DNA of 64,000 nucleotides from Patescibacteria group bacterium (GCA_023379025.1 JAMCTH010000003.1:103362-167361), one strand, 5' to 3'. Positions 2,588 to 18,550 are shown, counted from the stretch's first letter. Made by a program: numbers and translations. Notes: a model not told the origin generated them from the letters alone.

Positions 2588-3169
2588 CTACAACCCCAGT
2601 TCCTCGTGGTGAACTTGCATCGAAGAAAGTGTTATTTGTATAAATTCATCAACCGGTATCCCAAGTTTTTCTTCGCATTGTGCTATCTGTTCCCGGGCAA
2701 CCGCGGCTGCAAATGCCTTTTGTTTCCATTTCTTTTGAACTGATTCAACAGTCACAAGATCGAGTTTCTTTTCCGGCCGGACCAAGGCAACGGCGACTAT
2801 AAACCCGGTAAGCTCATCCACCGTTTCAAGCGCCCATTCCATAGCTCCCTCAAGCTCTGCGAGGTGCGTTCTTTTTCCGTTATGGGATTTAAGCGCATGA
2901 ACGATCGGGCCCTCCGTTTCTCCGAGTTCATGAAGCCATGAAAGCGTATGCTTCGTGTGCTCGTCAGGACTGTCTTTCGTTTCTTCCCAATCCGCGTCAT
3001 GGAGTAAGCCGAGAATCTCCCACTGATCCGGGTCGCCACCGAGCTTCTCCGCAAGGGCGCGCATGGCAAACCCTACCGCGTACATATGACGCCGGAGGTT
3101 CTGGTTTTGGGTGTGGGCATGAAGAAGATCAAGTGCCTGATTTCTGGTGATCATAAGCTCATGTGACAA
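2588..3169 (-). CDS. HD-domain phosphohydrolase
   Basis: 193 aa. H...HD motif (LLHDADWEE) and conserved His residues typical of the HD superfamily. Confidence 0.7.
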   Translation of the reverse strand: MSHELMITRNQALDLLHAHTQNQNLRRHMYAVGFAMRALAEKLGGDPDQWEILGLLHDADWEETKDSPDEHTKHTLSWLHELGETEGPIVHALKSHNGKRTHLAELEGAMEWALETVDELTGFIVAVALVRPEKKLDLVTVESVQKKWKQKAFAAAVAREQIAQCEEKLGIPVDEFIQITLSSMQVHHEELGL

Positions 3170-5477
3170 CTCCTGTGAAATCGAGTGTTCCGCCGCAATA
3201 CCGGAGGATGTTCTGTACTGACTCGTTCAGAGAATGTTCGACCATATCCGGTGCAATATCCAATATCCCGTCCACGTTAATCCAGATATCCTTCGTATCT
3301 TCCGTCACCATGGTGCGCTTCGCATCGCGGTAATTAAAGTCAATATTATACCCGCCGACCCGGTCGTAATACGCGAGTTCCGTGGCCTTATATGCGGTAG
3401 GTTCCGTATCCCCAAGCAACAGTATTTCGTCACCCGCCCCGGCGTACCGGAGTACGGCCGGAAATTGCACCATATCCGCATTAAAGGCTCCGATAGATAC
3501 TCTATGACTCATGACAACCAGATTATATGCATCGACACAGGTATTTACGGTGTACAGTCCCTTTCCGAGCGCGACACGACGGAGAAGCGCTTCCGGTGAA
3601 GGCCGTCGGGAATGCCAGTCTATCCCCATATCCCGGTAGAGCTTCCGGTAGCTGATAATTTCCGGATACTTACCCAGTTCCTCTGTCGTCAACCCGGCAA
3701 GGCCGTTCAGGAATTTCTTTTTCTCTTCCTCAAGCCCGCGGTCCGAGGGAGCAATGCGGACTCCCCGAATCAGGGCGATACCGATGGAGACCGTCGGATA
3801 CCGCTCCTTCACCTTCGGATCTATGACAAAATAGTCCGGCTTGTGTATACCGTGAACGTTCTTTTCCCGAACGGTTACCTGAATTTTCGGGGCAAGTGTT
3901 AACCGTCCTATAACGGCGTCTTTCGGAAATTTCCTGAGAAGCCACCCGGCGCGCGGACCGTATGGTTTATCAAGTACTGAACAATAGAGCGCTTCAAAGG
4001 CAAGCTTTGGATCGAGATGCATCTCCTTTACCAGACGGAAGAGCTCTGACTGAAGTTTCTCCGGATCCTCTGCATATTTCCAGACTACTGCTAACTTCCG
4101 TAAGAAATCCCACTGTATGTCGGAAAGAGACAGATTCTCGTACGGCTTCACCGAAAGCTGGTATTTGTAATCATCCGGCGCGAACCTGGACACCCATACT
4201 CTCGCATACGTTTCCCGCTCGCCAAGGCATCGCACTTCTGCTTCGGTCAACCGTAATCCCTTAACGCACTCAAATTTCTGAAGCAAGTCGACGTTCGGCA
4301 ACTGTATGTAGTTGGCTATATCACGAAATCGGGGCAAAAACATCTCCGGATTTTTTGCGGGGGGTTCATGTATCTGAGACAGGAGAAATGCCCTCGATAA
4401 ATTTTCGTCGCCGTCCGTATGGTATGCCGTCCAGCAACGGTCGTATTCGTCAAATAAATCCGGTATTGCCATGGTCCCCGTCGGATCGATCTCTATAGCC
4501 TGCCGGTAATCCGTCCTCGTAAACAAAAACTTTCCGACTGGCGCGGGAAGGACCTTTGTAAGATCCCTTGCCTTAAGCCCCAACCCTTTTGATGAAGACA
4601 TTTTCTTGCCGCCGATGAGGAAAAATTCATACGGAAGATTATATGGCTCCGGTATATGAAAAACCTCGCGGCAGAGCTCCCGTGCTATATCCCGAGATCC
4701 GCCGGCAGATGAATGATCTTTTCCTGCTCCTTCGATCGTGACCCCCATCACTTTCCAATGTGCCGGCCAATCCACTTTCCACGGCAGTTTTCCCGGGTGA
4801 TGCTTCGGATCACCGGAGTCTGTAAAAGGACTGGTTTTCCCGTTATATCCGCATCCTTTTGCCCATGACACCATATCCGGTTCGCAGGTATAGGAAACGG
4901 TTGTACCGTCCCACCCGTGCACCCGCGTTGTGCCGAGTCTGCCGCAGTTTTCGCATACCACCTGAAGCGGGAGCCAACCTTTTTCCCGTTTTTTACTGCC
5001 ACTAACACGCTGATAAATATCCTGAATGAGGTCAGCATGATCGAGTGCTTCGCGAATCACGACATCGAATTTTCCCGCATGATACATATCCCAGGACGAA
5101 AGGAATGTTGCGGAGACCCCAAGCGATGTCAGCACCTTCTTAAAATCATTGGTGAAATACTCTGCAAATGTTGTTTCAGCATTATCCGGCGCACGCGCCA
5201 GCCGGAGCGGTTTGCCGAGTTCACTGGAAAGAGACATGAGTTCCGGGGGCAATCCGTCAACAGGATCGAAATCATTAAGAACAAAGGTAAATGTCACGTC
5301 GACTCCCCTGTCCAGGAGCGCCCGGTAGACAATGTCATGTACAAGCGGTCCCCGGAGTGACCCAATATGCGCAAAGCCGGACGGCGTAAACATATCATCC
5401 ACGTGATATGGCACAAATTTCCCTGTCTCAACGATTTTTTGTGCTACAGCATCTGCCCAAAACATATATACCCCCAT
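3159..5477 (-). CDS. lysK: Class I lysyl-tRNA synthetase fused to a C-terminal B3/B4-like tRNA-binding/editing domain
   Basis: 772 aa. HIGH-type motif FAHIGSLRG, a Zn-finger-like CENCGRL...C cluster and KMSKS motif KMSSSKG give an archaeal-type LysRS-I core of about 520 aa. About 230 extra C-terminal residues (YTVNTCVDAYNLVVMSHRVSIGAFNADMV...DFNYRDAKRTMV) resemble the PheT B3/B4 domain. Confidence 0.85.
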   Translation of the reverse strand: MGVYMFWADAVAQKIVETGKFVPYHVDDMFTPSGFAHIGSLRGPLVHDIVYRALLDRGVDVTFTFVLNDFDPVDGLPPELMSLSSELGKPLRLARAPDNAETTFAEYFTNDFKKVLTSLGVSATFLSSWDMYHAGKFDVVIREALDHADLIQDIYQRVSGSKKREKGWLPLQVVCENCGRLGTTRVHGWDGTTVSYTCEPDMVSWAKGCGYNGKTSPFTDSGDPKHHPGKLPWKVDWPAHWKVMGVTIEGAGKDHSSAGGSRDIARELCREVFHIPEPYNLPYEFFLIGGKKMSSSKGLGLKARDLTKVLPAPVGKFLFTRTDYRQAIEIDPTGTMAIPDLFDEYDRCWTAYHTDGDENLSRAFLLSQIHEPPAKNPEMFLPRFRDIANYIQLPNVDLLQKFECVKGLRLTEAEVRCLGERETYARVWVSRFAPDDYKYQLSVKPYENLSLSDIQWDFLRKLAVVWKYAEDPEKLQSELFRLVKEMHLDPKLAFEALYCSVLDKPYGPRAGWLLRKFPKDAVIGRLTLAPKIQVTVREKNVHGIHKPDYFVIDPKVKERYPTVSIGIALIRGVRIAPSDRGLEEEKKKFLNGLAGLTTEELGKYPEIISYRKLYRDMGIDWHSRRPSPEALLRRVALGKGLYTVNTCVDAYNLVVMSHRVSIGAFNADMVQFPAVLRYAGAGDEILLLGDTEPTAYKATELAYYDRVGGYNIDFNYRDAKRTMVTEDTKDIWINVDGILDIAPDMVEHSLNESVQNILRYCGGTLDFTGVVT

Positions 5478-6347: not shown

Positions 6348-6421
6348 GGCGCGTTCGTCTAGTGGCCCAGGACGGCTGGTTCTCAACCAGCAAATCATGG
6401 GTTCGAATCCCATACGCGCTA
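6348..6421 (+). tRNA. tRNA-Glu (anticodon CUC)
   Basis: 74 nt cloverleaf. Acceptor GGCGCGU/ACGCGCU (G1-U72), D-arm UCGUCUAGUGGCCCAGGAC (the tRNA-Glu signature), anticodon stem GCUGG/CCAGC with loop UUCUCAA giving CUC, T-arm AUGGGUUCGAAUCCCAU, discriminator A. No encoded CCA. Confidence 0.85.
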
Positions 6422-6507
6422 CAATTTATTTCACTCAGTACAGATCGTCGGTTCGTTTACTCCGAAAGCGAAGGTATTGGGAGAATCCGACTGTGGGTAC
6501 CAATTTA

Positions 6508-7131
6508 TCACTGATTGTCGCCAACTAATACGACGTCTCTTTCTAATAATCTATCCGGAAACGGTAAACCCCGTTTGACAAACTCAGGTTTGCTCTTCTC
6601 AATAACATCCTCGATTTTTGATTGTGTAATAAGTATTGTGGACGCCTCAACACGATCATCAACACTTATTAGTATTTCACCGGCCGCTACCCTCTCGATA
6701 ATTGTCTGTGCCCAGGAGACCTGTTTTTCCCACCGAATCGCCATCTCCTTTTCTCCCTCATGAAAGTCGGGGGTATGCGCTCTCATGGGATCCGCAATCC
6801 CGGGCATTACGACTGTATTAAATCTATGCCGTGAGCCATACGTATCAGCATAATTAGCTCCTAAAGCATTGCTTAATCTGTCTATCATTCTGGTGGGGTC
6901 ATCGGAAGTAGGTAATAGTCCATGTTCAAATCTAAAGAGAGCTATCAGCCGAGCGATGGGACGAGGGAGTATAGTCATTATTGCCCTATCTATTTTCCGT
7001 AGCTCTGGTGTTGGCGGTAGCATCTGACGAACGGCCCAACCGATTTGGTCACCGAGGTAATCTCTATCCCCTTCTGCCATATATGAGATTGTATCAGTAA
7101 AGAATGAATCGACAAACATGTTCGATTTCAT
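6508..7131 (-). CDS. Hypothetical protein, last gene of the island operon
   Basis: Long ORF of about 200 aa from MKSNMF with no family motif recognised. The start is uncertain (ORF extends to 7230). Confidence 0.4.
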   Translation of the reverse strand: MKSNMFVDSFFTDTISYMAEGDRDYLGDQIGWAVRQMLPPTPELRKIDRAIMTILPRPIARLIALFRFEHGLLPTSDDPTRMIDRLSNALGANYADTYGSRHRFNTVVMPGIADPMRAHTPDFHEGEKEMAIRWEKQVSWAQTIIERVAAGEILISVDDRVEASTILITQSKIEDVIEKSKPEFVKRGLPFPDRLLERDVVLVGDNQ

Positions 7132-7403
7132 CCCAACTTCTGTATACATTATGATATAGAGGAAGTGTGTTAATAAAACCGTACAATTGGTAAAAGTGTT
7201 CAACAATAGAATGACACGTAGTACTAGCAATCAGTAGTGCTCTTACTGCCCACACCCCCGGGGTGTGTAACATTGAGTGCAATGTTCCTTTCTATGTTGT
7301 GGACGATCATTATACCTATCAGTAGCAATATGCCCATTCAGGCATACTTGCATTACGTCATAATATCCCATAAACTTCTCCTAATTTTTTTACTGGCCAA
7401 TGT

Positions 7404-7832
7404 TTATTCATCGATTTTTTCGGTTAGTTTAGAAATCAGTTCTTTTAACGTTTTAATGTTTTCAGGATCATCGCTATATGCGTCAAACCAGTAACTTTTT
7501 TCTCCATTCTCGCCTTTATGGAAATTTAGAAATCTTCCGAACCTTTCTATCCTAAAGCCTTTCTCTCCTCCAATTGAAAATAAATTAGAACGAGCTATTA
7601 AACCAATAAAAAGAATAATTAAGGTAATCCAAAGAAAAAGGTTATTTTGGAGAATAGATTCCCCTAGCAATAATTTCGCTAACTTTAGGACTAAAATCCA
7701 TAAAAGGAGATATAAAATAGGTGCCAAAAATCTAAAAGTTGGAACGATTATATTTTTATATGAACTTTCAATAAATTGTATTAACATAGTCATTTTTACT
7801 GGCCAATTAGTTTTCATAAATAAAAATCCCAC
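7404..7832 (-). CDS. Hypothetical small membrane protein (2 predicted TM helices)
   Basis: 142 aa. Hydrophobic stretches ILYLLLWILVLKLAKLLL and LFLWITLIILFIGLIA. AT-rich codon usage consistent with the island. Confidence 0.4.
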   Translation of the reverse strand: MGFLFMKTNWPVKMTMLIQFIESSYKNIIVPTFRFLAPILYLLLWILVLKLAKLLLGESILQNNLFLWITLIILFIGLIARSNLFSIGGEKGFRIERFGRFLNFHKGENGEKSYWFDAYSDDPENIKTLKELISKLTEKIDE

Positions 7833-8560
7833 AAACCTAAATTACTAAGTATACATATAATAGTTAGATTAAACTTTTGTTTTGGGACACTTTTTTCAAA
7901 ATAAGTTTTCAAATTATTGTAAGTAATATTTTGTAGTCCTATTGGTTGATGTGACCATATAAAAACAATTCCACTTCCAAACTTTTGTATTTGATAATAA
8001 CTTTCTAGTTGGTAAAGTGCTTGGTTATTTACTTTATCTATCAATTTTTGAAAAAACTTTTTCTCATCTAAACCCTGCGGGGAGAGAAGCTTTACCTCTA
8101 CTGGAGTTATTACGCTTCTATTTTTTGCAAGAAAATCTGGTGAGCGATTGTAATTGCTTTTTGGCAAATACTCAACTTCAGAAAAATTGCCAAAAAACTT
8201 AGTATTCACTAATCTAGTTGCAACGTCAAACTCTGCAAACATCTCTTCTACTCTTTGATCGTTTTTATTTCTTGTTATCTCTTTGCTGATATAAAAAATA
8301 GAGTTTGAGTTTTTAATTTTGTTGAGAACAGCTTGTGCACTGCTAACCCAGCTTTGATTTTGTAAATTATTTTTTAGCTTAATATAGATAGGTGAAGTTT
8401 GTAAATCCAATTTTTCATATTTATCCAATATCGGCTGGATTAGTTTTTCAATCTCTTTTTTTACTGAATCACGATTTCCTTTATCTTGCTTCATAAATTT
8501 GTATACAAGGAGCCTTATAAAAATTTTGTAGTTCCTGGAACTTGTTACAATAATATTCAA
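7814..8560 (-). CDS. Hypothetical protein (island)
   Basis: 248 aa ORF in the AT-rich island, overlapping both neighbours by short stretches (operon-like). No recognisable motifs. Confidence 0.4.
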   Translation of the reverse strand: MNIIVTSSRNYKIFIRLLVYKFMKQDKGNRDSVKKEIEKLIQPILDKYEKLDLQTSPIYIKLKNNLQNQSWVSSAQAVLNKIKNSNSIFYISKEITRNKNDQRVEEMFAEFDVATRLVNTKFFGNFSEVEYLPKSNYNRSPDFLAKNRSVITPVEVKLLSPQGLDEKKFFQKLIDKVNNQALYQLESYYQIQKFGSGIVFIWSHQPIGLQNITYNNLKTYFEKSVPKQKFNLTIICILSNLGLWDFYL

Positions 8561-8765
8561 TATCTTCTTCTGATAAATGATGTCCTACTTTTGAGAGTTT
8601 TTCTCTTAACCATAATCCATCCTTTGTTTTCCTACTGTATCGGCAAACGCACTTCACAAAAGCGTAAAATCTCTCCAGATCTAACGGGTGGAAAGATTCC
8701 GGATATTGACCAATCCATAATTTAAAAGATTGATCTATCGGATGTTGGTTATGTATTAAAGTCAT
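8481..8765 (-). CDS. Hypothetical small protein (island)
   Basis: 94 aa ORF directly downstream of the methyltransferase gene. Cys/His-containing (CVCRY...HH...YYC). No family assigned. Confidence 0.35.
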   Translation of the reverse strand: MTLIHNQHPIDQSFKLWIGQYPESFHPLDLERFYAFVKCVCRYSRKTKDGLWLREKLSKVGHHLSEEDIEYYCNKFQELQNFYKAPCIQIYEAR

Positions 8766-8801: not shown

Positions 8802-11800
8802 TTAACTGCTTTCTACAACTGCTATTTCTTCCGTCGTTAGGCCGTAGAGTTTATAAACCAATTGGTCAATTTGCTTTTCGTATTCGATAACCTGTGATTG
8901 CTTAATGGAGTTTCGTAGATAATCCCTGTCTGTGGTAATGACTAGGATTTTATTGACCATACTGACAATCTTTTCTATGTTTATTTTATTTGTATTCTTA
9001 ATTGGGAAAAGTTCAATTTTATATTTTTTCCAACGGCTTGTGCCCATACCCGAACTTGTTGATATTTGCTCAAAATACCAGAGCCCAAGTTTTGAGTTTA
9101 AAATTCCTAGTAAATACTTAAGATTGTCACCCACCATAGCAAAGAGAGTCGCTTCGGCAATAAACCCTTTGTCATCATAAGTAAATTTTGGTTTATCAGA
9201 TAACTCTCCCCAAATAATTTTTGGTTTCTCAAATTCTTCAAAATAAACACAATTTCTAAGATTAGTCCAATGTGAGCCCTTATTGTGTCTAATTTCTAAT
9301 TTATCCCTGTACTGCGCTAAATGTTTATAAATTGCAGGGTAATTTTTCGCCACATCAATTCTTGGAAGCTTGCCTTTTATTCCGTTATGGCTATTTATTA
9401 GCCAGAGGTCTTGCCATTCATAATAATATTTTCCGACATCACGACCCCTCAACATTGGCTTAATTATTTCTGCACTTTTTGGGTCTACTTTAGTCAGTTT
9501 GTTTTTTGTCTCGGTGCTAATTACGAAAGCATCATTATAACCATTTAGAATACCTATATAAATTCGCTGGTTTAGTTGCTTTAGTGGGGTAGAATCTTTT
9601 TCTAGCTTTGCTCTAAGTGAAGCTGTTTCTAAATTGCTTATTATCCATCCGTTGTCATCAAGATTATCAAGAGTCACATAGTTATTGCTGAAATAACTAC
9701 TAATATCTACGTACCGGTTCGAGGTTAAATTAAAACTAAGTGCTCTAAGTTTATTTTGGAATACACTTTTTTCGAGGACAATTACATTACTCTCTACAAT
9801 AGCTGTATCGAATACTTGAGAATTCTCGAAATCAATTAGGATTAAAGGGTTGGTGTTTTCTTTAAAGTATTTTCTCAATAACGCACCATACTTTGTTTTC
9901 ATCCATGAGTTCGAACTGATATAAGAAAGTGTCCCCATATTTTTTAAAAGATTTACCCCTTTTTCATAAAACACACAATAAACGTCCGAAGATTTCGAAT
10001 AAGTCTTAAAATCCAACTTTGATAACTCTTGACTTACTTTTTTATTCTTTTGTAACTGAAAATAGGGTGGGTTAGCTATGACTACATCAAAACCACCGTT
10101 CTTTTCAAACACTTCGCTAAAATTAAGTTTCCAAAGGAAAAATGGCTTGATGTTTGCTTTTTTGAAGCGCTCGATTTCCGGCAAGAGAGATAATTTTTTC
10201 TGCTCCTTAACAGATGCCTCAATCAAATCCCAAGTTAAGTTTTCAATTTCTCTCTTGATTTCGTCTTTCTCAGTTTTGTGCGCAGTCTTAAAGAATTGAG
10301 CTTTGAGTTCTTGTAGTTGCTTGGTAATTCTCTCTGCCTCTGAGATAAGATCAAAGAAGTGTTGTTGTTCTAATTTTGCTTCGGACTCAAAAAGCTTAAT
10401 ACCCTCGTATTCCTCGAGTAAGCTATTGCCCTGCATAATTTTATAATCAAGGTTTGGCAGGGGTTTAATTTGCTTGATATCCTGCTCATCAACAATTAAA
10501 GAAAGCCACAAACGAAGTTTGGCTATTTCCACAGCTCCGGGGTCTATATCTACCCCGTACAGGCAGTTTTGAATGGCGTGGCGCTTGAAGTCATAGATAC
10601 TGCGGCCGTTATCCGATAGGTAATTGGTGAGGATGTTGCGAACTCTAATTACTTCGGTCATCATGCCGACCAAAAAGGCACCGGACCCAACCGCAGGATC
10701 GCAAACATGGATTTTTTCTAATTTTTCATCAAGAAGGTGTGCGTTGTCGCGAATACTTTGTGGAAGTCTAAAGTGATAGTCTTTTGTTTCCCGACCTTCA
10801 TTTATAACCCGTGCTTCGTGCTCAATGGCTGTTTCCCCTAAGCGGATGAGGGTTTCGATATCATCCCGTCTAACTTTGCCGTCTAATTCTGTGAGTAGAT
10901 AGTTAATTAAACTTTCCTGACACATATAGTGGACAATCTCACGCGGGGTGTAGTAAGTGCCTTTGGATTTGCGGTCTTTAACTTCCAAAAGGTTCTCAAA
11001 AACCTTTCCCAGCATCTCCGGATCAACGGCCACCTCACGCTCAAGCGGCTCATCTTCCTTAACCGTGAAGTTGTAGCGGTCAAAAACATCTAAAATCCCG
11101 TCTCCGGTGTCGCCCTCTTTGGTTTTCCTATTATTCGAAAAAAGCTCATCGGGTAAGCGAATATCGGTGTGCACCCAGTCATAGTTTCCAAGGGGATCAA
11201 AAAGTCCTCCGTTTAAGAAGGGAATTTTGCAGTTAAATTTGCTATAAAAATCATCTGTACGCTCAACGGCTAAGGCTTCGTAAAAAAGAGGTTCCAGGGT
11301 GTCGTTGAAGAAATTATCGTAAGGAGCTATCGTTTTTTCAAAAAGCCGGCGTAAAAAGTCTTTTGGACCCGTACCCCAAACGGCATCTCTGGCAACCCCA
11401 AACCAGCCCTTTTTTTGTAAAAAGTAAAGGAAAACAATCTGACCAAGAAGCTTTTTAGCAAAGTCGGTGGTGTCGATATTTTTCTCTTGGAAGTCAGATT
11501 TTATCTTGGCGTCTTTGGCAACCATCGCGTCGAGCGCCTCTTTGGTATCCAAAAACAGCTTTTTATACTTTTCAAAGAAGTCTTTGGTAACAACCTCAAC
11601 GCTGAAAGCTGACTCAAGATCACTAAGAGCGGGTTTAAAGTCCGTGTCTTTGAGAATTGGCAGAAGTTGTCTTTGAGCGGTGTGAGTGTTTTCGTTGGCG
11701 CCAACTAAAAAAGAAAAACGGCGAGCCGGGGTAAGCTCGGTTATGGCCTTTATCTTTCCGGCTTTTGACTCTCCCAAGTGATAATCCATCTTTACTAAGG

Positions 11801-12200
11801 AGAGCCGCCAATCGTCAGAGTCTTTGGTATAAAAAGCCACAAGCGCGGCGTCTTTGGCGATACCGCCTCGACTGCCGTTTAAGTACCAAGCAATAAAGTT
11901 TCTTTGCATGGTACGCGCCCGCTCTAAAGCGCTTTGTTTATTTAAACAAACTGCTAAGACTTCAATTTTATGGCCGTCAACGTCCTCATACTTACCCAGA
12001 CGTTCAAGCGTTTTTATATGTGAGTCGTAGGCGTCGGGTATGAGATTGCCTCGATAGATAAAAGTATCGGTATCTAGGAAGTGAAAGAGGTTTTTGGCAA
12101 AGATTAAAAAACGCTCCCTATCGAAGGGATTTTCAAAAGTGCTCTTAATCAGATTTAATGCCCACGTTTCATTCATGGATGTCTTCCTCCAATAACTCAA
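8802..12200 (-). CDS. Large gamma-class N6-adenine DNA methyltransferase, Eco57I / type IIG / PglX / DrmMI-like
   Basis: 1132 aa. Motif X-like GTYYTPREIVHYM, SAM-binding motif I VCDPAVGSGAFL and catalytic motif IV DVVIANPPY. About 400 aa N-terminal region and about 400 aa C-terminal putative target-recognition region, an architecture shared by type IIG/IIL enzymes and BREX/DISARM methylases. Confidence 0.85.
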   Translation of the reverse strand: MSYWRKTSMNETWALNLIKSTFENPFDRERFLIFAKNLFHFLDTDTFIYRGNLIPDAYDSHIKTLERLGKYEDVDGHKIEVLAVCLNKQSALERARTMQRNFIAWYLNGSRGGIAKDAALVAFYTKDSDDWRLSLVKMDYHLGESKAGKIKAITELTPARRFSFLVGANENTHTAQRQLLPILKDTDFKPALSDLESAFSVEVVTKDFFEKYKKLFLDTKEALDAMVAKDAKIKSDFQEKNIDTTDFAKKLLGQIVFLYFLQKKGWFGVARDAVWGTGPKDFLRRLFEKTIAPYDNFFNDTLEPLFYEALAVERTDDFYSKFNCKIPFLNGGLFDPLGNYDWVHTDIRLPDELFSNNRKTKEGDTGDGILDVFDRYNFTVKEDEPLEREVAVDPEMLGKVFENLLEVKDRKSKGTYYTPREIVHYMCQESLINYLLTELDGKVRRDDIETLIRLGETAIEHEARVINEGRETKDYHFRLPQSIRDNAHLLDEKLEKIHVCDPAVGSGAFLVGMMTEVIRVRNILTNYLSDNGRSIYDFKRHAIQNCLYGVDIDPGAVEIAKLRLWLSLIVDEQDIKQIKPLPNLDYKIMQGNSLLEEYEGIKLFESEAKLEQQHFFDLISEAERITKQLQELKAQFFKTAHKTEKDEIKREIENLTWDLIEASVKEQKKLSLLPEIERFKKANIKPFFLWKLNFSEVFEKNGGFDVVIANPPYFQLQKNKKVSQELSKLDFKTYSKSSDVYCVFYEKGVNLLKNMGTLSYISSNSWMKTKYGALLRKYFKENTNPLILIDFENSQVFDTAIVESNVIVLEKSVFQNKLRALSFNLTSNRYVDISSYFSNNYVTLDNLDDNGWIISNLETASLRAKLEKDSTPLKQLNQRIYIGILNGYNDAFVISTETKNKLTKVDPKSAEIIKPMLRGRDVGKYYYEWQDLWLINSHNGIKGKLPRIDVAKNYPAIYKHLAQYRDKLEIRHNKGSHWTNLRNCVYFEEFEKPKIIWGELSDKPKFTYDDKGFIAEATLFAMVGDNLKYLLGILNSKLGLWYFEQISTSSGMGTSRWKKYKIELFPIKNTNKINIEKIVSMVNKILVITTDRDYLRNSIKQSQVIEYEKQIDQLVYKLYGLTTEEIAVVESS

Positions 12201-13005
12201 TGCGCGTAGCGCGCATCAACGACCTCATTTGATCGATCGCTACCTGATTAAGTGAAGCTAACCGTTTATTTTGCGGCAGCCCCTCTTTTATTAAAAGAGC
12301 ATTCAATGATTCCAAATTTGTCAGACAAACAAGTTGCGCGGCAGTTGCATAATCACGAATATTTCCCGGTTTATGTGGATTGGTATCCCGCCACTCGGTA
12401 GCGGTTATGCCGAATAAAGCTTTGTTGAGCACGTCTGCTTCGCTGGCATAGATAAAATTTATTTGCTGTTGAGAGAGTACCGGAGGGATCAAATGAGCTT
12501 TTACAGCGTCTGTGTGTATTCTGTAATTGATTGCCGCTAAATTCCGTTTCAAATCCCAACCCAATTTTTTCTGCTCGATTTCTTCTTCCTTAAGTCTCTG
12601 AAATTCTTTAATGAGATAGATTTTAAATTCGGGGCTAATCCACATGCCAAATTCAAAAGCGATGTCTTTGTGAGCGTATGTGCCGCCATATCTTCCCGCC
12701 CTTGCTTTCAACCCGATAGCATTTGTTTTTCGAACCCAATCTTTGACGCTGATTTTGTAACTGTTTAGACCAGCCTGGCTTCTAATTATGGCGAATTCGC
12801 CATAATTAAACTGAGGATTATTAATCCGCTCCCAAATGCCCAAAAAATCAACGGTGTTCCTGTTTCTGAGCCAATCTGAAATGAAAAAGTCCCCGTCTTT
12901 GGCTTTAAGCATATCAGTGAGTGAAATATAGTCGCCCTCTTTTGTTTGGAATAAGGTTATTTGTCTGCCCTTGACCGTTAATTGTTTTGAACTAGATTTT
13001 TTCAT
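12169..13005 (-). CDS. KilA-N domain protein
   Basis: About 279 aa from MKKSSSKQ. Central YGGTYAHKDIAFEFGMWISPEFKIYLIKEF matches the KilA-N/APSES-type DNA-binding signature (GTWVHP.LA..FA.WLSP.F). The start lies 13 nt after the helicase stop and the stop overlaps the methyltransferase start. Confidence 0.65.
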   Translation of the reverse strand: MKKSSSKQLTVKGRQITLFQTKEGDYISLTDMLKAKDGDFFISDWLRNRNTVDFLGIWERINNPQFNYGEFAIIRSQAGLNSYKISVKDWVRKTNAIGLKARAGRYGGTYAHKDIAFEFGMWISPEFKIYLIKEFQRLKEEEIEQKKLGWDLKRNLAAINYRIHTDAVKAHLIPPVLSQQQINFIYASEADVLNKALFGITATEWRDTNPHKPGNIRDYATAAQLVCLTNLESLNALLIKEGLPQNKRLASLNQVAIDQMRSLMRATRIELLEEDIHE

Positions 13006-16000
13006 ATAAATATTCGGATAAAATGACTTCTCTTGGTCCGGCAACTTGTGCCGAACTTTCAGCCAATGTTTCTTTGAAAAACTCGCTTGGAATACCAAGT
13101 TTCAAAAGCGACAGCAATTTAAGCGGATTTTTATCTTTCTTGTATAGCTCGTCAAGATTTTTGATTAGTCTTTTGGTTGTGGACTTAGGCAAGGCGCCTT
13201 CTTCCAGACGAGCCATAACATTACGAAGGTAGAGCTCATCTTCTTCGGTATAGCCCTTGAAGTCTTTGACTTCCCGGGCCTTGAGAATGTTAAGAAGCTG
13301 GGCGCTGGTGTCACGGCCTCGTTTACCCTTAACTTCTTGGGCTTCTTCGGTTGTGGCCAAAACAAACGCCTGTTTATTTTTCGAAAGCAGTTTATAAAAA
13401 TCTTCTCCTACCGGTTCCCGTCCGGCTTCTTTGGCAACTTCCAGTTTTTGCGCGGCTGAAATAAAGTCAAGCTCCATCGAATCACCACTGGCAACAGCGA
13501 AGAATTTTTGCAGTTTGCCTTTTCTGAAATAAGTAAGTAAAGAATTGGTTTTATCGTCATCCTTATCAATTCTTGCGGTGCGGGCTTTTTTAGGCAGTCT
13601 TTTGATTTTTTCAAATAAGTCCGGGTTAGTATCCCTAATATCGCGAATGATTGAGAGGTATTTAAGATCGCTTTCTTCTTCCTCGTCCTCACCGGTAATA
13701 ACTTCTTTGGAAGTTAAGCGAATCCAAAGGTCGTGCGACTTAATTTCCTCGCCTTCGGTGAGAAGCCTGGCGTCTGCCCCAAGAAGTTCTATAAAAGCTT
13801 CGATTTTAGCTTCGGCCGCCTCTTTGAGTTTAATTTGGTCGTTTGACTGTTTAGTAGGGAAGAAATTAAACGTATATATTTTGTCAAAGGGAGTATCAAC
13901 GCGGTTAATGCGGCCTGTTCTTTGCATTAAACGGGTAGGATTCCAGGGAATGTCATAATTGATAACCACGTTGGACTGGTGAAGGTTGACGCCTTCTGAA
14001 AGTACCTCGGTGGTGACTAGAATCCGGTAATCGTCTTTGGGGAATCGGGCTCCCGCGTCAAAGTTCTCAATCACTTTCTCGCGCACGCTGGCTCCGGAGC
14101 TTCCATGAAACGAGAGCACTTGTTCGGGGAATTTAGTACTTAGGTTTTTCTCAAGGTATTGGGCGGTTTCTTTAGATTCGGTAAAAATAATAAGTTTACT
14201 CTCACCCAAAATTTTACGAGATAAGAGGATGTCTATAAATTTGGCCAGTTTAGGGTCCCCACTGACACGGCGCCAAAGCTTGGTGATATCTCTTAAAATG
14301 GCCAGGTCGTTTTCGAGATCAACTTTGAAAGAGTCTTCAAAGTCTTCTGATTTATAACGCTGGGCCATATCTTCATCTACCAGCCTTTGTATCGCGGCTT
14401 CGTCGTCCTGCTCCAAAAGCTCGAAGATTTTATTGATATGCTTTTTACTGACATAAACATTGCCTTTTTCAAACTCATCTAAAAACCGCTCGTATGAAGC
14501 GATAAACCTATCAAGCGTATTTCTGAACGCAAAGAAGCTACTTTCCAAGCGTTTAACCAAAAGGATTTTCATAAACTTACCCATGTTCTTCTGACCTTGT
14601 TTGTCTGCTTGAGATACGTCGCCTTTGTAGTAGGTAAGGGGCATGTAACGGGCGTATTTGAATTTTTGTGTTATAGACTCGATAGTTGTGGTAAAAATCG
14701 CATCTTCTTCTTTATCGAGCTGGTATAAAATCGGCTCCGGATCTGCGACATCGGGAAATTTGAGGTTTTGCTTTTCCAGGTCTTTACTAAAATAATTGAT
14801 AATTTCACTGCGGGTACGCCTAACCATCAGATATTTAAGGACTTTTTCTCTTATTTCCTTGGCATTATCACGAACGGTGTCGAGATACTCGGCGCGGTTT
14901 CGCTGACGGTCCAAGCCCTTAAGTCTTTTTTCCAGACTTGAGAAGAAGATTTCCAAGTTGGGAAGGTTAGGAATGGTACTTTTCTTGGGTTTTTGAAATA
15001 GCTTGATTTGGCTCAAGATATCTTTCGGCGAATTGTTATAAGGGGTAGCCGTAACTAAAATTACCCTTTTACCACGAGTAATCTGCGCTAGCTTCTCATA
15101 AGTAATGTTATCCTCGGTTCTGAAGCGGTGAGCCTCATCTACAAACACATTGCTGTATTTATCCGTGCCTCTTTCAATTAACTTTTCCAGCTTTCCCAGA
15201 GATTCAAAGTCGGCGGAGACTTTAAAGTCGGAAAAAACATTCGGCCAAGAGCCCGGATTGTTCTCATCCAAAAGAACCGGCGGCGCTATGACCAAGTTTC
15301 TGCCGTCGAGCTGGTTGGCCAGCATAGCGGCAATATAGGTTTTACCCAAACCCACAACGTCGGAGATGAAAACACCGCCGTATTCATCTAGGATTTTTTT
15401 AGCGTTGAGAACTGCTTGCTCCTGATATTCAAGTTTTTTGAATTTAACGGGGGTGTACTTGTAAAAAACGTCTCCGGTTTGACTGATCTGATCTTTGAAA
15501 TACTCATAAAGGAATTTGAGGTAAAGCTCATAGGGGGTGATGGTGTTATTCAGCCAAGTTTTGTTATTGACCGTTTCGATGTATTTTTCGGAGACATCAA
15601 CGGCGTCTTTCCAAAGCTGGTTAAACTTATCTTGGGCAAATCGGTAATCGGACGCAGTTTTAAGCTCAACATTAAATTCAAGATTATCAACCAAGCCTTT
15701 TTGCGAGAAATTGCTTGAGCCGGTGATAACACGGCCAATGTCTCGGTCTCCTTCTTTGAAAGTGATGATATAGAGCTTGGCATGGATGTTGGCGGTAGGA
15801 TAGGCCCTTATTTCCAGCTTTCCGCTTTTTATCCATTCGATAAACCTAGTTACACCCTGTTCTATGCTCTCGGCGTCCTCGGATTCTTCCAGCTCGGAGG
15901 CAATGAGAGTTGAAAATTCCTCTTTGGCTTCGGCATGCGAGAAGGTGAGCGATAGTTGTTCTTCTGCGGCCTTGATATTCTCAAGCGTTTCGCGTCCGGT

Positions 16001-16189
16001 GCCGATTCCTATTAAAATGCGGATTTTCTCGGTTTTCTCAAGAACCGGATAGAGCTTGTAAAACCCGCTGGTATAAAAATAGCCGACTAAACTATCGAAA
16101 AAACGAGCGTCTTTAATTAAAACCCTGAAGCGGTTTAAAAGGCTTATTTCTTTTTCGTTTGTTATAAACGTTAGGTCTGAAACTTGCAT
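12992..16189 (-). CDS. PLD-family nuclease domain fused to SNF2-family (SF2) helicase
   Basis: 1065 aa. N-terminal HxK PLD motif HAKLYIITF...GSSNFS. Then Walker A GLGKTYIAA, DEAH box VFVDEAHRFR, motif III VTATPYNNS and motif VI QRTGRINR. About 300 aa helical C-terminal tail of unknown function. Confidence 0.85.
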   Translation of the reverse strand: MQVSDLTFITNEKEISLLNRFRVLIKDARFFDSLVGYFYTSGFYKLYPVLEKTEKIRILIGIGTGRETLENIKAAEEQLSLTFSHAEAKEEFSTLIASELEESEDAESIEQGVTRFIEWIKSGKLEIRAYPTANIHAKLYIITFKEGDRDIGRVITGSSNFSQKGLVDNLEFNVELKTASDYRFAQDKFNQLWKDAVDVSEKYIETVNNKTWLNNTITPYELYLKFLYEYFKDQISQTGDVFYKYTPVKFKKLEYQEQAVLNAKKILDEYGGVFISDVVGLGKTYIAAMLANQLDGRNLVIAPPVLLDENNPGSWPNVFSDFKVSADFESLGKLEKLIERGTDKYSNVFVDEAHRFRTEDNITYEKLAQITRGKRVILVTATPYNNSPKDILSQIKLFQKPKKSTIPNLPNLEIFFSSLEKRLKGLDRQRNRAEYLDTVRDNAKEIREKVLKYLMVRRTRSEIINYFSKDLEKQNLKFPDVADPEPILYQLDKEEDAIFTTTIESITQKFKYARYMPLTYYKGDVSQADKQGQKNMGKFMKILLVKRLESSFFAFRNTLDRFIASYERFLDEFEKGNVYVSKKHINKIFELLEQDDEAAIQRLVDEDMAQRYKSEDFEDSFKVDLENDLAILRDITKLWRRVSGDPKLAKFIDILLSRKILGESKLIIFTESKETAQYLEKNLSTKFPEQVLSFHGSSGASVREKVIENFDAGARFPKDDYRILVTTEVLSEGVNLHQSNVVINYDIPWNPTRLMQRTGRINRVDTPFDKIYTFNFFPTKQSNDQIKLKEAAEAKIEAFIELLGADARLLTEGEEIKSHDLWIRLTSKEVITGEDEEEESDLKYLSIIRDIRDTNPDLFEKIKRLPKKARTARIDKDDDKTNSLLTYFRKGKLQKFFAVASGDSMELDFISAAQKLEVAKEAGREPVGEDFYKLLSKNKQAFVLATTEEAQEVKGKRGRDTSAQLLNILKAREVKDFKGYTEEDELYLRNVMARLEEGALPKSTTKRLIKNLDELYKKDKNPLKLLSLLKLGIPSEFFKETLAESSAQVAGPREVILSEYLYEKI

Positions 16190-16237
16190 GAGCTGATTAT
16201 ACGTCTAAAACCCGATGAGGTCGAGAGGGTTTAGAGG

Positions 16238-16771
16238 CTATTTACTCCAAATACCACGCTTCTTTTTCTGTGCTTCTTCTTGAGCTTTCAGTAATTCATC
16301 CTGATACTTCAGCTTTCTCCGATCCTGATAGATAGTAACTTTCACTAAGCCTTGTTTCGCAAGCTCCACCACTACATTTTTCCCTTCGATAAACGGATAG
16401 GCAAGCACCCTGCCGAACCGGTCTGACGTGTAGGCGTCATATTCAAACGTGACGGTTTTTCCCTGAACGAGTTTGATCATCGCTTTCGTTGCATCTTCCT
16501 CGAACGGTTGCCCGGAATCCGGAGCATTCACCCCGACAAATCGGACGATCTGACCATTTGCTAACTCTATAGTGTCGCCATCTATAACTCGTTTGACCGT
16601 TTCCTTTGCTGGAAGGTTCCGGATAGTGGTTGTTGAGACATTGGGTTGTTCGAGTATTGTTTTTACCTGTTGTTCATACTTTGTCCCACCAAGAAAGGAT
16701 AACAGAGCAACGAGGAGTGTTGCCGGCACTAAGACCAGTTTGTTGGTGTTGTACTTCGATTTTGCATTCAT
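16238..16771 (-). CDS. Thermonuclease (staphylococcal nuclease / SNase-like), membrane-anchored or secreted
   Basis: 177 aa. N-terminal TM helix, VIDGDTIEL...RFVGVNAPD catalytic motifs of the SNase fold, and a Lys-rich tail. Confidence 0.85.
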   Translation of the reverse strand: MNAKSKYNTNKLVLVPATLLVALLSFLGGTKYEQQVKTILEQPNVSTTTIRNLPAKETVKRVIDGDTIELANGQIVRFVGVNAPDSGQPFEEDATKAMIKLVQGKTVTFEYDAYTSDRFGRVLAYPFIEGKNVVVELAKQGLVKVTIYQDRRKLKYQDELLKAQEEAQKKKRGIWSK

Positions 16772-17058
16772 GGCGATTTGATAAGACTGGCAAACCGGAG
16801 TTTGTACAGGCTTTCCAGTAAATCAGATCCGGCGTATCCAGCCAAAAGTGACATCCGCCAATCGACGTTCATGATGAGTCCTGACATAAGACCGACGAGC
16901 ATGGATACCAAAATGGTGAATCCGAATTGCTTCCAGGAGAACTGAAATGTTTTGGGGTCAAACTCCTTGGCTTTAGTGATACCAACTAGTCCACGCACAA
17001 AGCCGCCAGTAGCACCGGCAATGGCCTGTCCAATAATAGTCCCGACCATAATTTCCAC
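16768..17058 (-). CDS. Small membrane protein (2 TM), unknown function
   Basis: 96 aa, Gly/Ala-rich TM helices. Overlaps the nuclease start by 4 nt (translationally coupled). Confidence 0.4.
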   Translation of the reverse strand: MEIMVGTIIGQAIAGATGGFVRGLVGITKAKEFDPKTFQFSWKQFGFTILVSMLVGLMSGLIMNVDWRMSLLAGYAGSDLLESLYKLRFASLIKSP

Positions 17059-17071
17059 CCCCTTTCTGTAG

Positions 17072-18424
17072 TTAAAACAGATAGACGGTTGCTTTTCCTT
17101 TACCTTCCATTTTCAGCATACCACGGGAAACAAGAGCAGATAAATAGTCGGTTGCCGTACTTTGTGAGATATGTAACAAATCACGCACCTGTTCGTTTGT
17201 AATTTTCTTTTTTTCCTGGGCAAACGAAAAGATTTTCGATATCGATTCTTCCCGTTTTTTCTTTTTCGCATCATTGCCTTTGACTGAATTTTCTTTCCTG
17301 CGCGCGTCAAACATGGCGGTTGCCTGTTTTTCGATTTCTTCTTGAGAAGGTTGGGGTGGTTGGGGTGATATGGGAGATACGGGAACATCCGGCTGTATGG
17401 GAGGAGTTACCGGCTGCGGTTGTATCACCGGTTCCGGTTGGATGGGTTGTGGCGAAGGTAGCGGTTTGTCCGTGTGTTGGGAGAGATATGGTGACGGATC
17501 AATATACCCCAGATATCCGTTATTTACATCCGGATTGTTTGGTTGCATCCCGAAATGAAGATGCGGTCCGGTCACAAACCCGGTAGCATCGGAAAGCCCG
17601 ATGGCTTGGGCTTTTGTGACGATATCGTTGACCAACACCCCGAAGGATTGCAGATGGCAATAGATACTCGATCCCCAGGAATGCTTGATGGTGATGGAAA
17701 TACCAAAATCCCCGTTGTCGCCAACTTGGGTAACTACCCCATCATCACATGCAAGAACGTCGGTCCCACTGGGTAATCCGAAATCCAAACCGTTATGTCC
17801 AACAATACCCCACTCCTGATATTTTTTCTTGATGGCCTCATTATCCGGTTGGCTCCCGAACCCAAACAAAACGGGAAATTCTGCGTAAAACGGATATGCA
17901 AGGACCGGAATTGCGGGTGGAGTTGGTTGATTTTGGGGCGCTGTAGTGCCCTGCACGGTTTGATTGTCCGGATTTTCCGGTTCAGTTACAGGAGACACAG
18001 TTTGAGCAGATGGAGTACTGATAGCTGGCACGGATGGAGTCGGACTGGGTACAGATGAAGGCTCTGGTGATGATGTGTCGGATGGTTGAGCCGGTGCTGG
18101 TGCGGGAACGTCAGTTGCCACTGGTTCCGGTTGGTCCGACGAGGGTTGATTTACTACTGAAGCTGGATTTGAAGGTGACGGCTGAACTGGTTGGGTATTG
18201 GCCGATTCGACACTGGATCCCGACAAGTCGGATGTCGGTTCCGGCCGATTGGGAACCTCGGACATTACACCGGTATTTGAGCCTGGATCTGGTGGAGAAA
18301 CCGGATCGTCTGCCATGATTCTAGAATACACCCCACCCTTCGCTAAAGCTACGGCGGGCAAGCAAAACAGGAATCGGCCAAAACCGGAGGCTGTACCGAC
18401 AAACGCCAACCGGCAATCGGCCAA
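17072..18424 (-). CDS. M23 (LytM-type) peptidase with Pro/Ser/Thr-rich linkers and a C-terminal winged-helix domain
   Basis: 450 aa. HNGLDFG...D...GPHLHF M23 metallopeptidase motifs. Long low-complexity P/S/T/Q linkers. C-terminus ITNEQVRDLLHISQSTATDYLSALVSRGMLK looks like a DeoR/MarR-type wHTH. The true start may be the internal MADDPVSPP near 18316. Confidence 0.75.
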   Translation of the reverse strand: MADCRLAFVGTASGFGRFLFCLPAVALAKGGVYSRIMADDPVSPPDPGSNTGVMSEVPNRPEPTSDLSGSSVESANTQPVQPSPSNPASVVNQPSSDQPEPVATDVPAPAPAQPSDTSSPEPSSVPSPTPSVPAISTPSAQTVSPVTEPENPDNQTVQGTTAPQNQPTPPAIPVLAYPFYAEFPVLFGFGSQPDNEAIKKKYQEWGIVGHNGLDFGLPSGTDVLACDDGVVTQVGDNGDFGISITIKHSWGSSIYCHLQSFGVLVNDIVTKAQAIGLSDATGFVTGPHLHFGMQPNNPDVNNGYLGYIDPSPYLSQHTDKPLPSPQPIQPEPVIQPQPVTPPIQPDVPVSPISPQPPQPSQEEIEKQATAMFDARRKENSVKGNDAKKKKREESISKIFSFAQEKKKITNEQVRDLLHISQSTATDYLSALVSRGMLKMEGKGKATVYLF

Positions 18425-18550
18425 AACGCCTGCCCGCTGCGCCTATCTACAAACACAATCGGCCAGAACGGTGGGTTCTGGCCGAATAGCAAAATCAGAC
18501 TCCGTGGGCAAGCTATGGCAGGCGGGGTGGGTTCTGGCCGATTTGAAATT
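18365..18550. promoter_or_regulatory. Array of direct and inverted repeats (TCGGCCARAAC / GGGTTCTGGCCGA) between the divergent M23 peptidase gene and the two-component operon
   Basis: AATCGGCCAAAAC occurs twice. A 10-5-10 inverted repeat CGGCCAGAAC-GGTGG-GTTCTGGCCG and a second GGGTGGGTTCTGGCCGA follow, all within about 180 nt. Confidence 0.35.

Follow-up and report, generated by a model that had tools for sequence, protein, structure and literature searches.

The gene R, located at 12992-16189 on the minus strand of a 64,000-nucleotide stretch of DNA from a Patescibacteria group bacterium (GCA_023379025.1, JAMCTH010000003.1:103362-167361; the whole stretch is hereafter the window), encodes a protein of 1065 residues comprising a phospholipase D (PLD) nuclease domain, a Snf2 ATPase and a C-terminal tail, and is probably, with a probability of about 0.7 judged from sequence comparison, the restriction subunit of an ATP-dependent restriction-modification system made up of two genes. 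The second gene, M, at 8802-12176 on the same strand, encodes a predicted N6-adenine methyltransferase with its own recognition domain, 1124 residues long when counted from the ATG at 12176. The original prediction, generated by a model from the sequence of the window, had proposed that PLD, SNF2 and a C-terminal tail are fused in one polypeptide, which the open reading frame (ORF), the Pfam matches and the motifs bear out, and had taken the product for a single effector with coupled translocation and cleavage. The idea of coupling is reasonable, but the stand-alone view overlooked an obligatory partner, the large methyltransferase encoded two genes downstream, and it is this partner that casts R as a restriction subunit rather than as a stand-alone effector.

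The linkage between the two genes was followed in 84 related loci, 76 of which are informative, that is, contain enough sequence downstream of R. A homologue of M lies directly downstream of R and on the same strand in 76 of the 84 loci, corresponding to every informative one; of the remaining eight, seven stop at the R gene or less than about 500 bp away from it, and the eighth (L039), also without a visible M, carries a Schlafen-like gene inserted after R, followed by the contig end. The stop codon of R and the start codon of M usually overlap or lie within about 20 nucleotides of each other, unless another gene is inserted. In the closest relatives, with R proteins 86-94% identical to that of the window, R and M are directly coupled and the KilA-N gene that separates them in the window is missing; these pairs lie either next to a type IV secretion system pilin gene, on one contig, or within a prophage-like element. 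The pair has no conserved third companion: when 418 neighbouring ORFs from 54 loci were clustered, the largest cluster was represented in just 6 of the 54. In addition, the loci display an ecology like that of restriction-modification systems, with defence genes inserted between R and M and downstream of them (OLD, UvrD, AAA_13 and ApeA). A RapA-like housekeeping helicase, a possibility named in the original prediction as one that would undo it, finds no support in the RapA equivalog model, which scores 47.2 bits against a cut-off of 576; because this score lies so far below the cut-off and related loci have defence genes as neighbours, the setting of the R-M pair is one of defence and not of housekeeping.

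The R reading frame opens with an ATG and closes with a TAG at 12994-12992, and the encoded protein can be divided into an N-terminal nuclease, a two-lobed motor with a helical insertion, a linker and the tail, all on the minus strand. The PLD/HKD nuclease domain covers residues 17-200 (15590-16141) and is matched by PLDc_2 (E=7e-9) and by the RE_NgoFVII PLD domain (E=4e-5); the assignment of the N-terminal motif to a PLD domain thus withstands a profile search, the PLDc_2 match on residues 105-193 reaching 36.0 bits against a gathering cut-off of 27. The protein contains a sole HKD signature, HAKLYIITFKEGDRDIGRVITGSSNFS, at residues 136-162 (15704-15784), with the single HxK formed by H136-A-K138 and a GSSN motif at G157-S-S-N160. 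The pattern HxK-x4-D-x6-GSxN proposed originally therefore holds for the histidine, the lysine and the GSSN element; the motif scan does not find the canonical HxK-x4-D spacing, as T143 occupies the position of the aspartate and an insertion separates HxK from GSSN.

The motor comprises (i) ATPase lobe 1, residues 251-400 (14990-15439), with Walker A GLGKT at 280, DEAH at 351 and TATP at 380; (ii) an insertion at residues 401-640 (14270-14989), all-helical in the AlphaFold model, such helical insertions between the lobes being typical of Swi2/Snf2 proteins; and (iii) ATPase lobe 2, residues 641-780 (13850-14269), with motif VI, QRTGRINR, at 756. Three Pfam families match this region above their gathering scores: ResIII on residues 251-384, SNF2-rel_dom on residues 328-473 (30.1 bits, cut-off 24.9) and Helicase_C on residues 648-764 (83.3 bits, E=1.8e-23). 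The solved structures nearest to the R model in a Foldseek search are RapA, Chd1, CSB, ISWI, Rad54 and the defence protein ZorD. Because SNF2-rel_dom scores above its gathering threshold and the top Foldseek matches are Snf2 proteins, the motor is, on profile and model evidence, of the Snf2 type, and ATP-driven translocation on double-stranded DNA is predicted for it. A linker of low confidence (residues 781-839, 13673-13849; predicted local distance difference test, pLDDT, 30-40) connects the motor to the tail. Just 5' of the R start codon, a promoter-like TCGACC-17-TATAAT (16196-16224, minus strand) agrees with the consensus at 10 of 12 positions, but such sites are no commoner in this region than in shuffled sequence, making it weak evidence.

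The residues expected to form the two active sites are retained throughout a family of considerable size. An exhaustive search of 1.84 billion cluster representatives returned 1529 proteins at E<=1e-30, and the best 150 of these 1529 relatives are mostly full-length, with 33-57% identity to R; in addition, about 8000 full-length homologues are found at 67-95% identity. The family is very large and horizontally spread, with members in at least 581 species genomes, bacterial as well as archaeal, including Woesearchaeota, Nanoarchaeota, Asgard and Methanosarcinaceae. Among 109 sequences, comprising the query and 108 full-length family representatives, H136 is kept in 106, K138 in 108 and GSSN in at least 107, whereas the Walker A lysine is kept in 108, the DExH box in 107-108 and the motif VI arginines in all 109; taken together, the catalytic positions of PLD and ATPase are preserved in 105-109 sequences. 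H136, K138 and G157-S-S-N160 are invariant in the close homologues. This high retention at both sites indicates, at the level of the alignment, that both predicted enzymatic activities of R are under selection.

The tail, residues 840-1065 (12995-13672, minus strand), is family-specific. The original prediction described it as Lys/Glu-rich, helical and similar to nothing recognized; the composition, rich in Lys, Glu and Leu, agrees, and the 225-residue tail has no recognisable relative, but AlphaFold predicts a fold that is not purely helical, in which an α+β unit (about 840-916) is followed by a bundle of helices and, at the end, by a β-strand that consists of the invariant GPREVILSEY. Aligned close homologues show a mean column identity of 69% over the tail, and residues 920-1040 are just 17% identical to the representatives of 50%-identity clusters, the tail thus diverging fast beyond the subfamily. 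It resembles no modified-base reader fold.

The product of M displays Pfam matches to Eco57I (E=3e-40), TaqI_C (E=6e-17) and N6_Mtase, with an NPPY motif at residue 702, and is, by these sequence features, a large γ-type, Eco57I/PglX-like N6-adenine methyltransferase with a TaqI_C-type recognition domain. It begins with an arginine-rich N-terminal domain, residues 1-235 (11472-12176, minus strand), that has no match in Pfam or the PDB. In the alignment of homologues, R88, R92, R124 and R153 of this domain are invariant, and no acidic residue is; the divergence of the domain tracks that of R (rho 0.73). The first 385 residues match no Pfam family and no PDB sequence, and their invariant positions are arginines, Trp, Ser and His, not acidic residues. 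When a profile of the first 500 residues was compared with PDB sequences, the methyltransferase motif X region alone was matched; M thus probably lacks a nuclease domain. At the other end, the target-recognition domain, residues 830-1124 (8805-9689, minus strand), has been swapped, as marked by a drop in both identity and GC content. Compared with the partner of an R gene 94% identical to that of the window, residues 1-600 of M are about 90% identical and residues 700-1100 only 16-30%; the GC content of the gene, about 44% elsewhere, drops at position 10500 to about 33% (32-36% below it, in the region 8805-10500). Because identity collapses and GC content falls in the half that holds the recognition domain, the M gene is a mosaic whose recognition domain was replaced relative to the closest relatives. 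Pairwise identities across 49 loci likewise speak for modular evolution: those of R regions correlate with the N-terminal domain of M (rho 0.63-0.74) and with its core (0.41-0.56) but not with the recognition domain (0.14-0.17), so that this domain changes hands while the remainder of the system does not.

As proposed, M would read a short asymmetric site and methylate one adenine of it in host DNA, and at unmethylated sites would recruit or activate R, possibly through the tail of R and the N-terminal domain of M, upon which the Snf2 motor would move along double-stranded DNA using ATP. Because each R protein contains one HKD motif, it would carry half a PLD active site, and cutting would need two PLD domains brought together. 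Single-HKD nucleases have been shown to form one active site as dimers in the case of MtsD, the effector of the BREX-related (BR) type-2, or MANTIS, systems, the structure of which, solved in 2026, reveals a dimer with one shared PLD site, and the same arrangement is stated for BfiI and SauUSI (bioRxiv 10.64898/2026.09.23.753747). Two routes to such pairing can be envisaged: (i) R may stand permanently as a dimer, like SauUSI and MtsD, or (ii) two complexes may converge and collide, as happens with Type ISP and Type III enzymes, a route that would also explain the tolerance of hemimethylated host DNA. The operon of the window would additionally carry the KilA-N gene wedged between R and M. A bolder proposal, which we regard as possible rather than probable, is that the pair represents a distinct class of restriction enzyme, in which a Snf2 motor bears half a PLD site, the tail docks on the N-terminal domain of M, cutting occurs only when two motors meet, and the gene junction serves as a landing site.

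Several points weigh against a two-gene restriction-modification system of this kind. Restriction, methylation, contact between R and M and translocation are all inferred, and the full-length AlphaFold model of R, with a pLDDT of 71 and a predicted template-modelling score (pTM) of 0.39, is too moderate to fix the domain arrangement. The correlated divergence of R and M speaks for co-inheritance, not for physical contact. The N-terminus of M contains a degenerate D109...D122-x-R124 element, with the acidic positions 85-87% conserved, and a nuclease-like fold is possible there. Moreover, the methyltransferase of MANTIS depends on an AAA+ loader, and in vitro reconstitution of cleavage by the MtsD-type PLD-helicase did not succeed (bioRxiv 10.64898/2026.09.23.753747); given MANTIS, the two-gene system may work differently from the mechanism proposed above.

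If the nuclease did reside in M, this protein could be a complete Type IIG enzyme, and the PLD-Snf2 protein R would act as an effector in an accessory or back-up role. Over its whole length, M is matched by the PADLOC model REase_MTase_IIG at 1121 bits, and residues 1-235 hold partly conserved D/E and K/R positions. The label, however, reflects a naming habit of REBASE, and the same label was formerly carried by PglX proteins, whose annotation has since been changed to methyltransferase (PMC12707154); a study of lactococcal plasmid-borne genes found no restriction domain in the equivalent protein (PMC6098607). Considering also that the N-terminus of M matches no nuclease in Pfam or the PDB and lacks an invariant acidic residue, and that the strict linkage, the frequent gene overlap and the shared divergence of R and M argue for one machine, we find the Type IIG reading improbable.

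R could also be an MtsD-like effector of the BR type-2/MANTIS systems (Gao_RL), in which a DUF499 AAA+ ATPase and a DUF3780 protein load the methyltransferase. HKD-helicase effectors define these systems (PMC12839542; bioRxiv 10.64898/2026.09.23.753747), and R presents the same layout, an HKD nuclease placed N-terminal to a superfamily 2 (SF2) ATPase (PMC12839542); like R as proposed, MtsD combines a single-HKD PLD domain with its motor and acts together with an adenine methyltransferase against unmethylated DNA. The similarity in sequence is partial, comprising matches to the NCBIfam 'phospholipase D-like domain-containing anti-phage protein', and to the PADLOC models PLD_Helicase and HmaA, the first of which scores 150.5 bits against a cut-off of 1100, although that model may not represent MtsD. 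MANTIS needs the DUF499 ATPase and the DUF3780 protein, whereas no ORF of the window matches either family and no such conserved neighbour cluster appears in the related loci, where the third genes sampled belong to other families. The methyltransferases differ in family as well, M being Eco57I/PglX-like with a TaqI_C domain, in contrast with the COG1743 methyltransferase described in DUF499 operons. Finally, SauUSI is missing from the top 50 Foldseek matches of R, which are Snf2 remodellers, whereas a resemblance to SauUSI is reported for MtsD. An MtsD-like role within such a system is therefore very unlikely.

The original prediction had framed R by reference to DISARM, and a DISARM component or variant with DrmC (PLD) and DrmD (SNF2) fused is less likely still. 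Class 1 DISARM (DrmD, DrmMI, DrmA, DrmB and DrmC) does assemble a SNF2 ATPase, a PLD nuclease and an adenine methyltransferase in one locus, DrmD models match the C-terminal half of the R motor (123 bits in PADLOC and 137 in NCBIfam), and M gives partial matches to DrmMI (134 bits in PADLOC). Nevertheless, the NCBIfam DrmD score, 136.7 bits before rounding, compares with an equivalog cut-off of 610, the SNF2 and PLD proteins of DISARM are separate, and its core of DrmA and DrmB has no counterpart here: neither the DrmA helicase nor DrmB (DUF1998) was detected among the ORFs of the window or as a conserved neighbour in the 54 loci. The missing DrmA and DrmB, the missing DUF499 and DUF3780 proteins and the scores far below the cut-offs therefore rule out membership in DISARM and in MANTIS. 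A stand-alone modification-dependent (Type IV, SauUSI-like) enzyme, with the tail as reader and the linkage to M incidental, scarcely deserves credence, since, even though SauUSI shows the same order of PLD, SF2 ATPase and C-terminal recognition domain, the R tail bears no likeness to a reader fold and a methyltransferase is linked in 76 of the 76 informative loci.

The two-gene restriction-modification system favoured here is close in plan to several known systems. The R-M pair looks like a Type ISP enzyme divided over two proteins, in which PLD replaces Mrr and the motor is of the Snf2 type. The Type ISP enzymes LlaGI and LlaBIII share with it the order of nuclease, translocase and γ-type adenine methyltransferase, a single recognition domain and an asymmetric site (PMC3874165), but consist of one polypeptide with an Mrr-like nuclease, compared with the two ORFs, PLD nuclease and Swi2/Snf2-like motor found here. 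SauUSI and CglI/NgoAVII likewise restrict DNA in an ATP-dependent manner by combining a PLD nuclease with an SF2 ATPase; unlike R, SauUSI reads methylated cytosine with its own C-terminal domain and has no methyltransferase, and CglI/NgoAVII hold nuclease and ATPase on separate proteins.

The same pair had in fact been recognized computationally before, and the system of the window is a further member of a known group and not, as had been supposed, a novel fusion. Three precedents establish this: (i) orf33/orf34 of Lactococcus pLd8, described in 2018 as a putative restriction-modification pair by van Mastrigt et al. (PMC6098607), who reached the same conclusion independently; (ii) a 2023 inversion survey listing a Type II restriction-modification coding sequence beside one with phospholipase D (cd09178) and SNF (cd18793) domains (PMC9881135); and (iii) the PADLOC 'HKD+Snf2' model, which is the best PADLOC match to R, at 143 bits. 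The BR type-2/MANTIS effectors add a further instance of the domain combination. The pLd8 pair consists of an R-like protein with PLD, SNF2 and Helicase_C domains followed by an N6-adenine methyltransferase, named 'Type IIG' by REBASE, with a TaqI_C domain but without a nuclease domain, and the R homologue of L. cremoris pJM1F is 32% and 29% identical to the R of the window over residues 35-840. The lactococcal pairs are nonetheless distant: the R tail cannot be aligned to that of the pJM1F homologue, and pJM1F possesses an Mpi invertase as well as a spare TaqI_C cassette in inverted orientation. The pLd8 and pJM1F pairs and the pair of the window are all known from sequence alone, and literature searches turned up no experimental study of the PLD-Snf2 R family. 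A plasmid search retrieved distant R relatives only, below 37% identity. Two candidate loci were rejected as other system types, namely that of Lactococcus pUL021B, comprising a helicase, a DUF4391 protein and a methyltransferase, and that of Rhodococcus pCRE138.

Inverted partial copies of the recognition domain are located just downstream of M in some loci (L030, 15546-17870; L062, 15859-16671; L093, 8203-9670); in pJM1F they adjoin the Mpi-family invertase. These spare cassettes suggest phase-variable specificity, matching the programmed inversions reported for such genes (PMC9881135).

Despite the abundance of the family, databases call R a 'helicase-related protein' and M 'Type IIG' or 'N-6 DNA methylase', so that tools for finding defence systems probably class these loci as Type IIG, overlooking what would be the real nuclease. 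On the reading preferred here, the mobile restriction system of the window is intact and ordinary for its kind, carried by a Patescibacteria genome. Once worked out, its mechanism would show a Snf2 motor harnessed for restriction without an AAA+ loader of the MANTIS type, and would offer, with two proteins, a minimal model of systems in which asymmetric sites are hemimethylated.

The gene between R and M in the window (12169-13005, minus strand) encodes a protein of 278 residues with a KilA-N domain (E=7e-24) and a match to PADLOC PDC-S22 (E=6e-128). Its ATG (13005) overlaps the end of R by 14 nucleotides and its TGA (12169) overlaps the ATG of M, and the gene is absent from all 84 related loci. 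KilA-N homologues are very conserved, with about 72% identity across phyla; in the two contexts looked at, they stand alone in variable regions, near Fic, toxin-antitoxin and methyltransferase genes, and a regular link of these homologues to restriction operons was rejected on that account.

The position between R and M is a recurrent insertion point, about 25 of the 76 loci having 0.5-2.8 kb between the two genes (L007, L009, L015, L020, L021, L027, L028, L032, L037-L040, L044-L046, L049, L056, L059, L060, L072, L074, L080, L083 and L084). The inserts sampled encode Schlafen/AlbA_2 with HATPase_c_4, DUF4062 with HATPase_c_4, Fic, Bro-N, RhuM, DUF3800 and an ISL3 transposase. The same set of passengers also occurs inside Type I operons, and the KilA-N gene of the window is one more such passenger. 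The gene right after M, sampled in L001, L003, L020, L022, L026, L037, L067, L071, L081 and L085, varies by locus as well, encoding an OLD nuclease, UvrD, AAA_13, an ApeA HEPN protein, pentapeptide repeats or a DUF2779/Cas4-like protein, and in other loci large proteins without a family, often with overlapping stop and start codons. In L085, the UvrD gene after M is followed by one for a PD-(D/E)xK protein. Second-line defence genes, for instance KilA-N, Schlafen-like, Fic and RhuM, may land preferentially at the R-M junction.

Within the window, the system sits in a low-GC island of about 6.5-17 kb, with 27-46% GC compared with 50-55% in the flanks. The island is bordered on one side by tRNA-Glu, greA-like and lysS-like genes and on the other by a two-component system, HtrA and Lon; the tRNA-Glu(CTC) gene at 6348-6422 on the plus strand marks its edge. 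Neither an integrase nor a convincing att-like direct repeat or tRNA-end repeat was found around the island beside tRNA-Glu. Downstream of M, the region 6508-8765 (minus strand; 27-39% GC) contains four ORFs of 94, 248, 142 and 240 residues, which gave no family match when scanned at permissive thresholds; the 248-residue ORF includes a PDF...x13...EVK string resembling a PD-(D/E)xK nuclease motif, and the 142-residue ORF looks membrane-embedded.

Further observations concern other parts of the window. At 3159-5477 on the minus strand, a class I lysyl-tRNA synthetase domain (tRNA-synt_1f) and a C-terminal B3/4 domain are joined in one protein of 772 residues. The region 16238-18424 (minus strand), immediately upstream of R, encodes a staphylococcal-nuclease homologue of 177 residues with a hydrophobic N-terminus and a protein of 450 residues in which an M23 peptidase is joined to a winged-helix domain at the C-terminus. 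A 23-nucleotide motif, beginning GGTGGGTTCTGGCCGA, occurs four times at 18190-18548, in the stretch that separates the M23 gene from the two-component system, and the same stretch contains a second repeat pair at 18362-18427.

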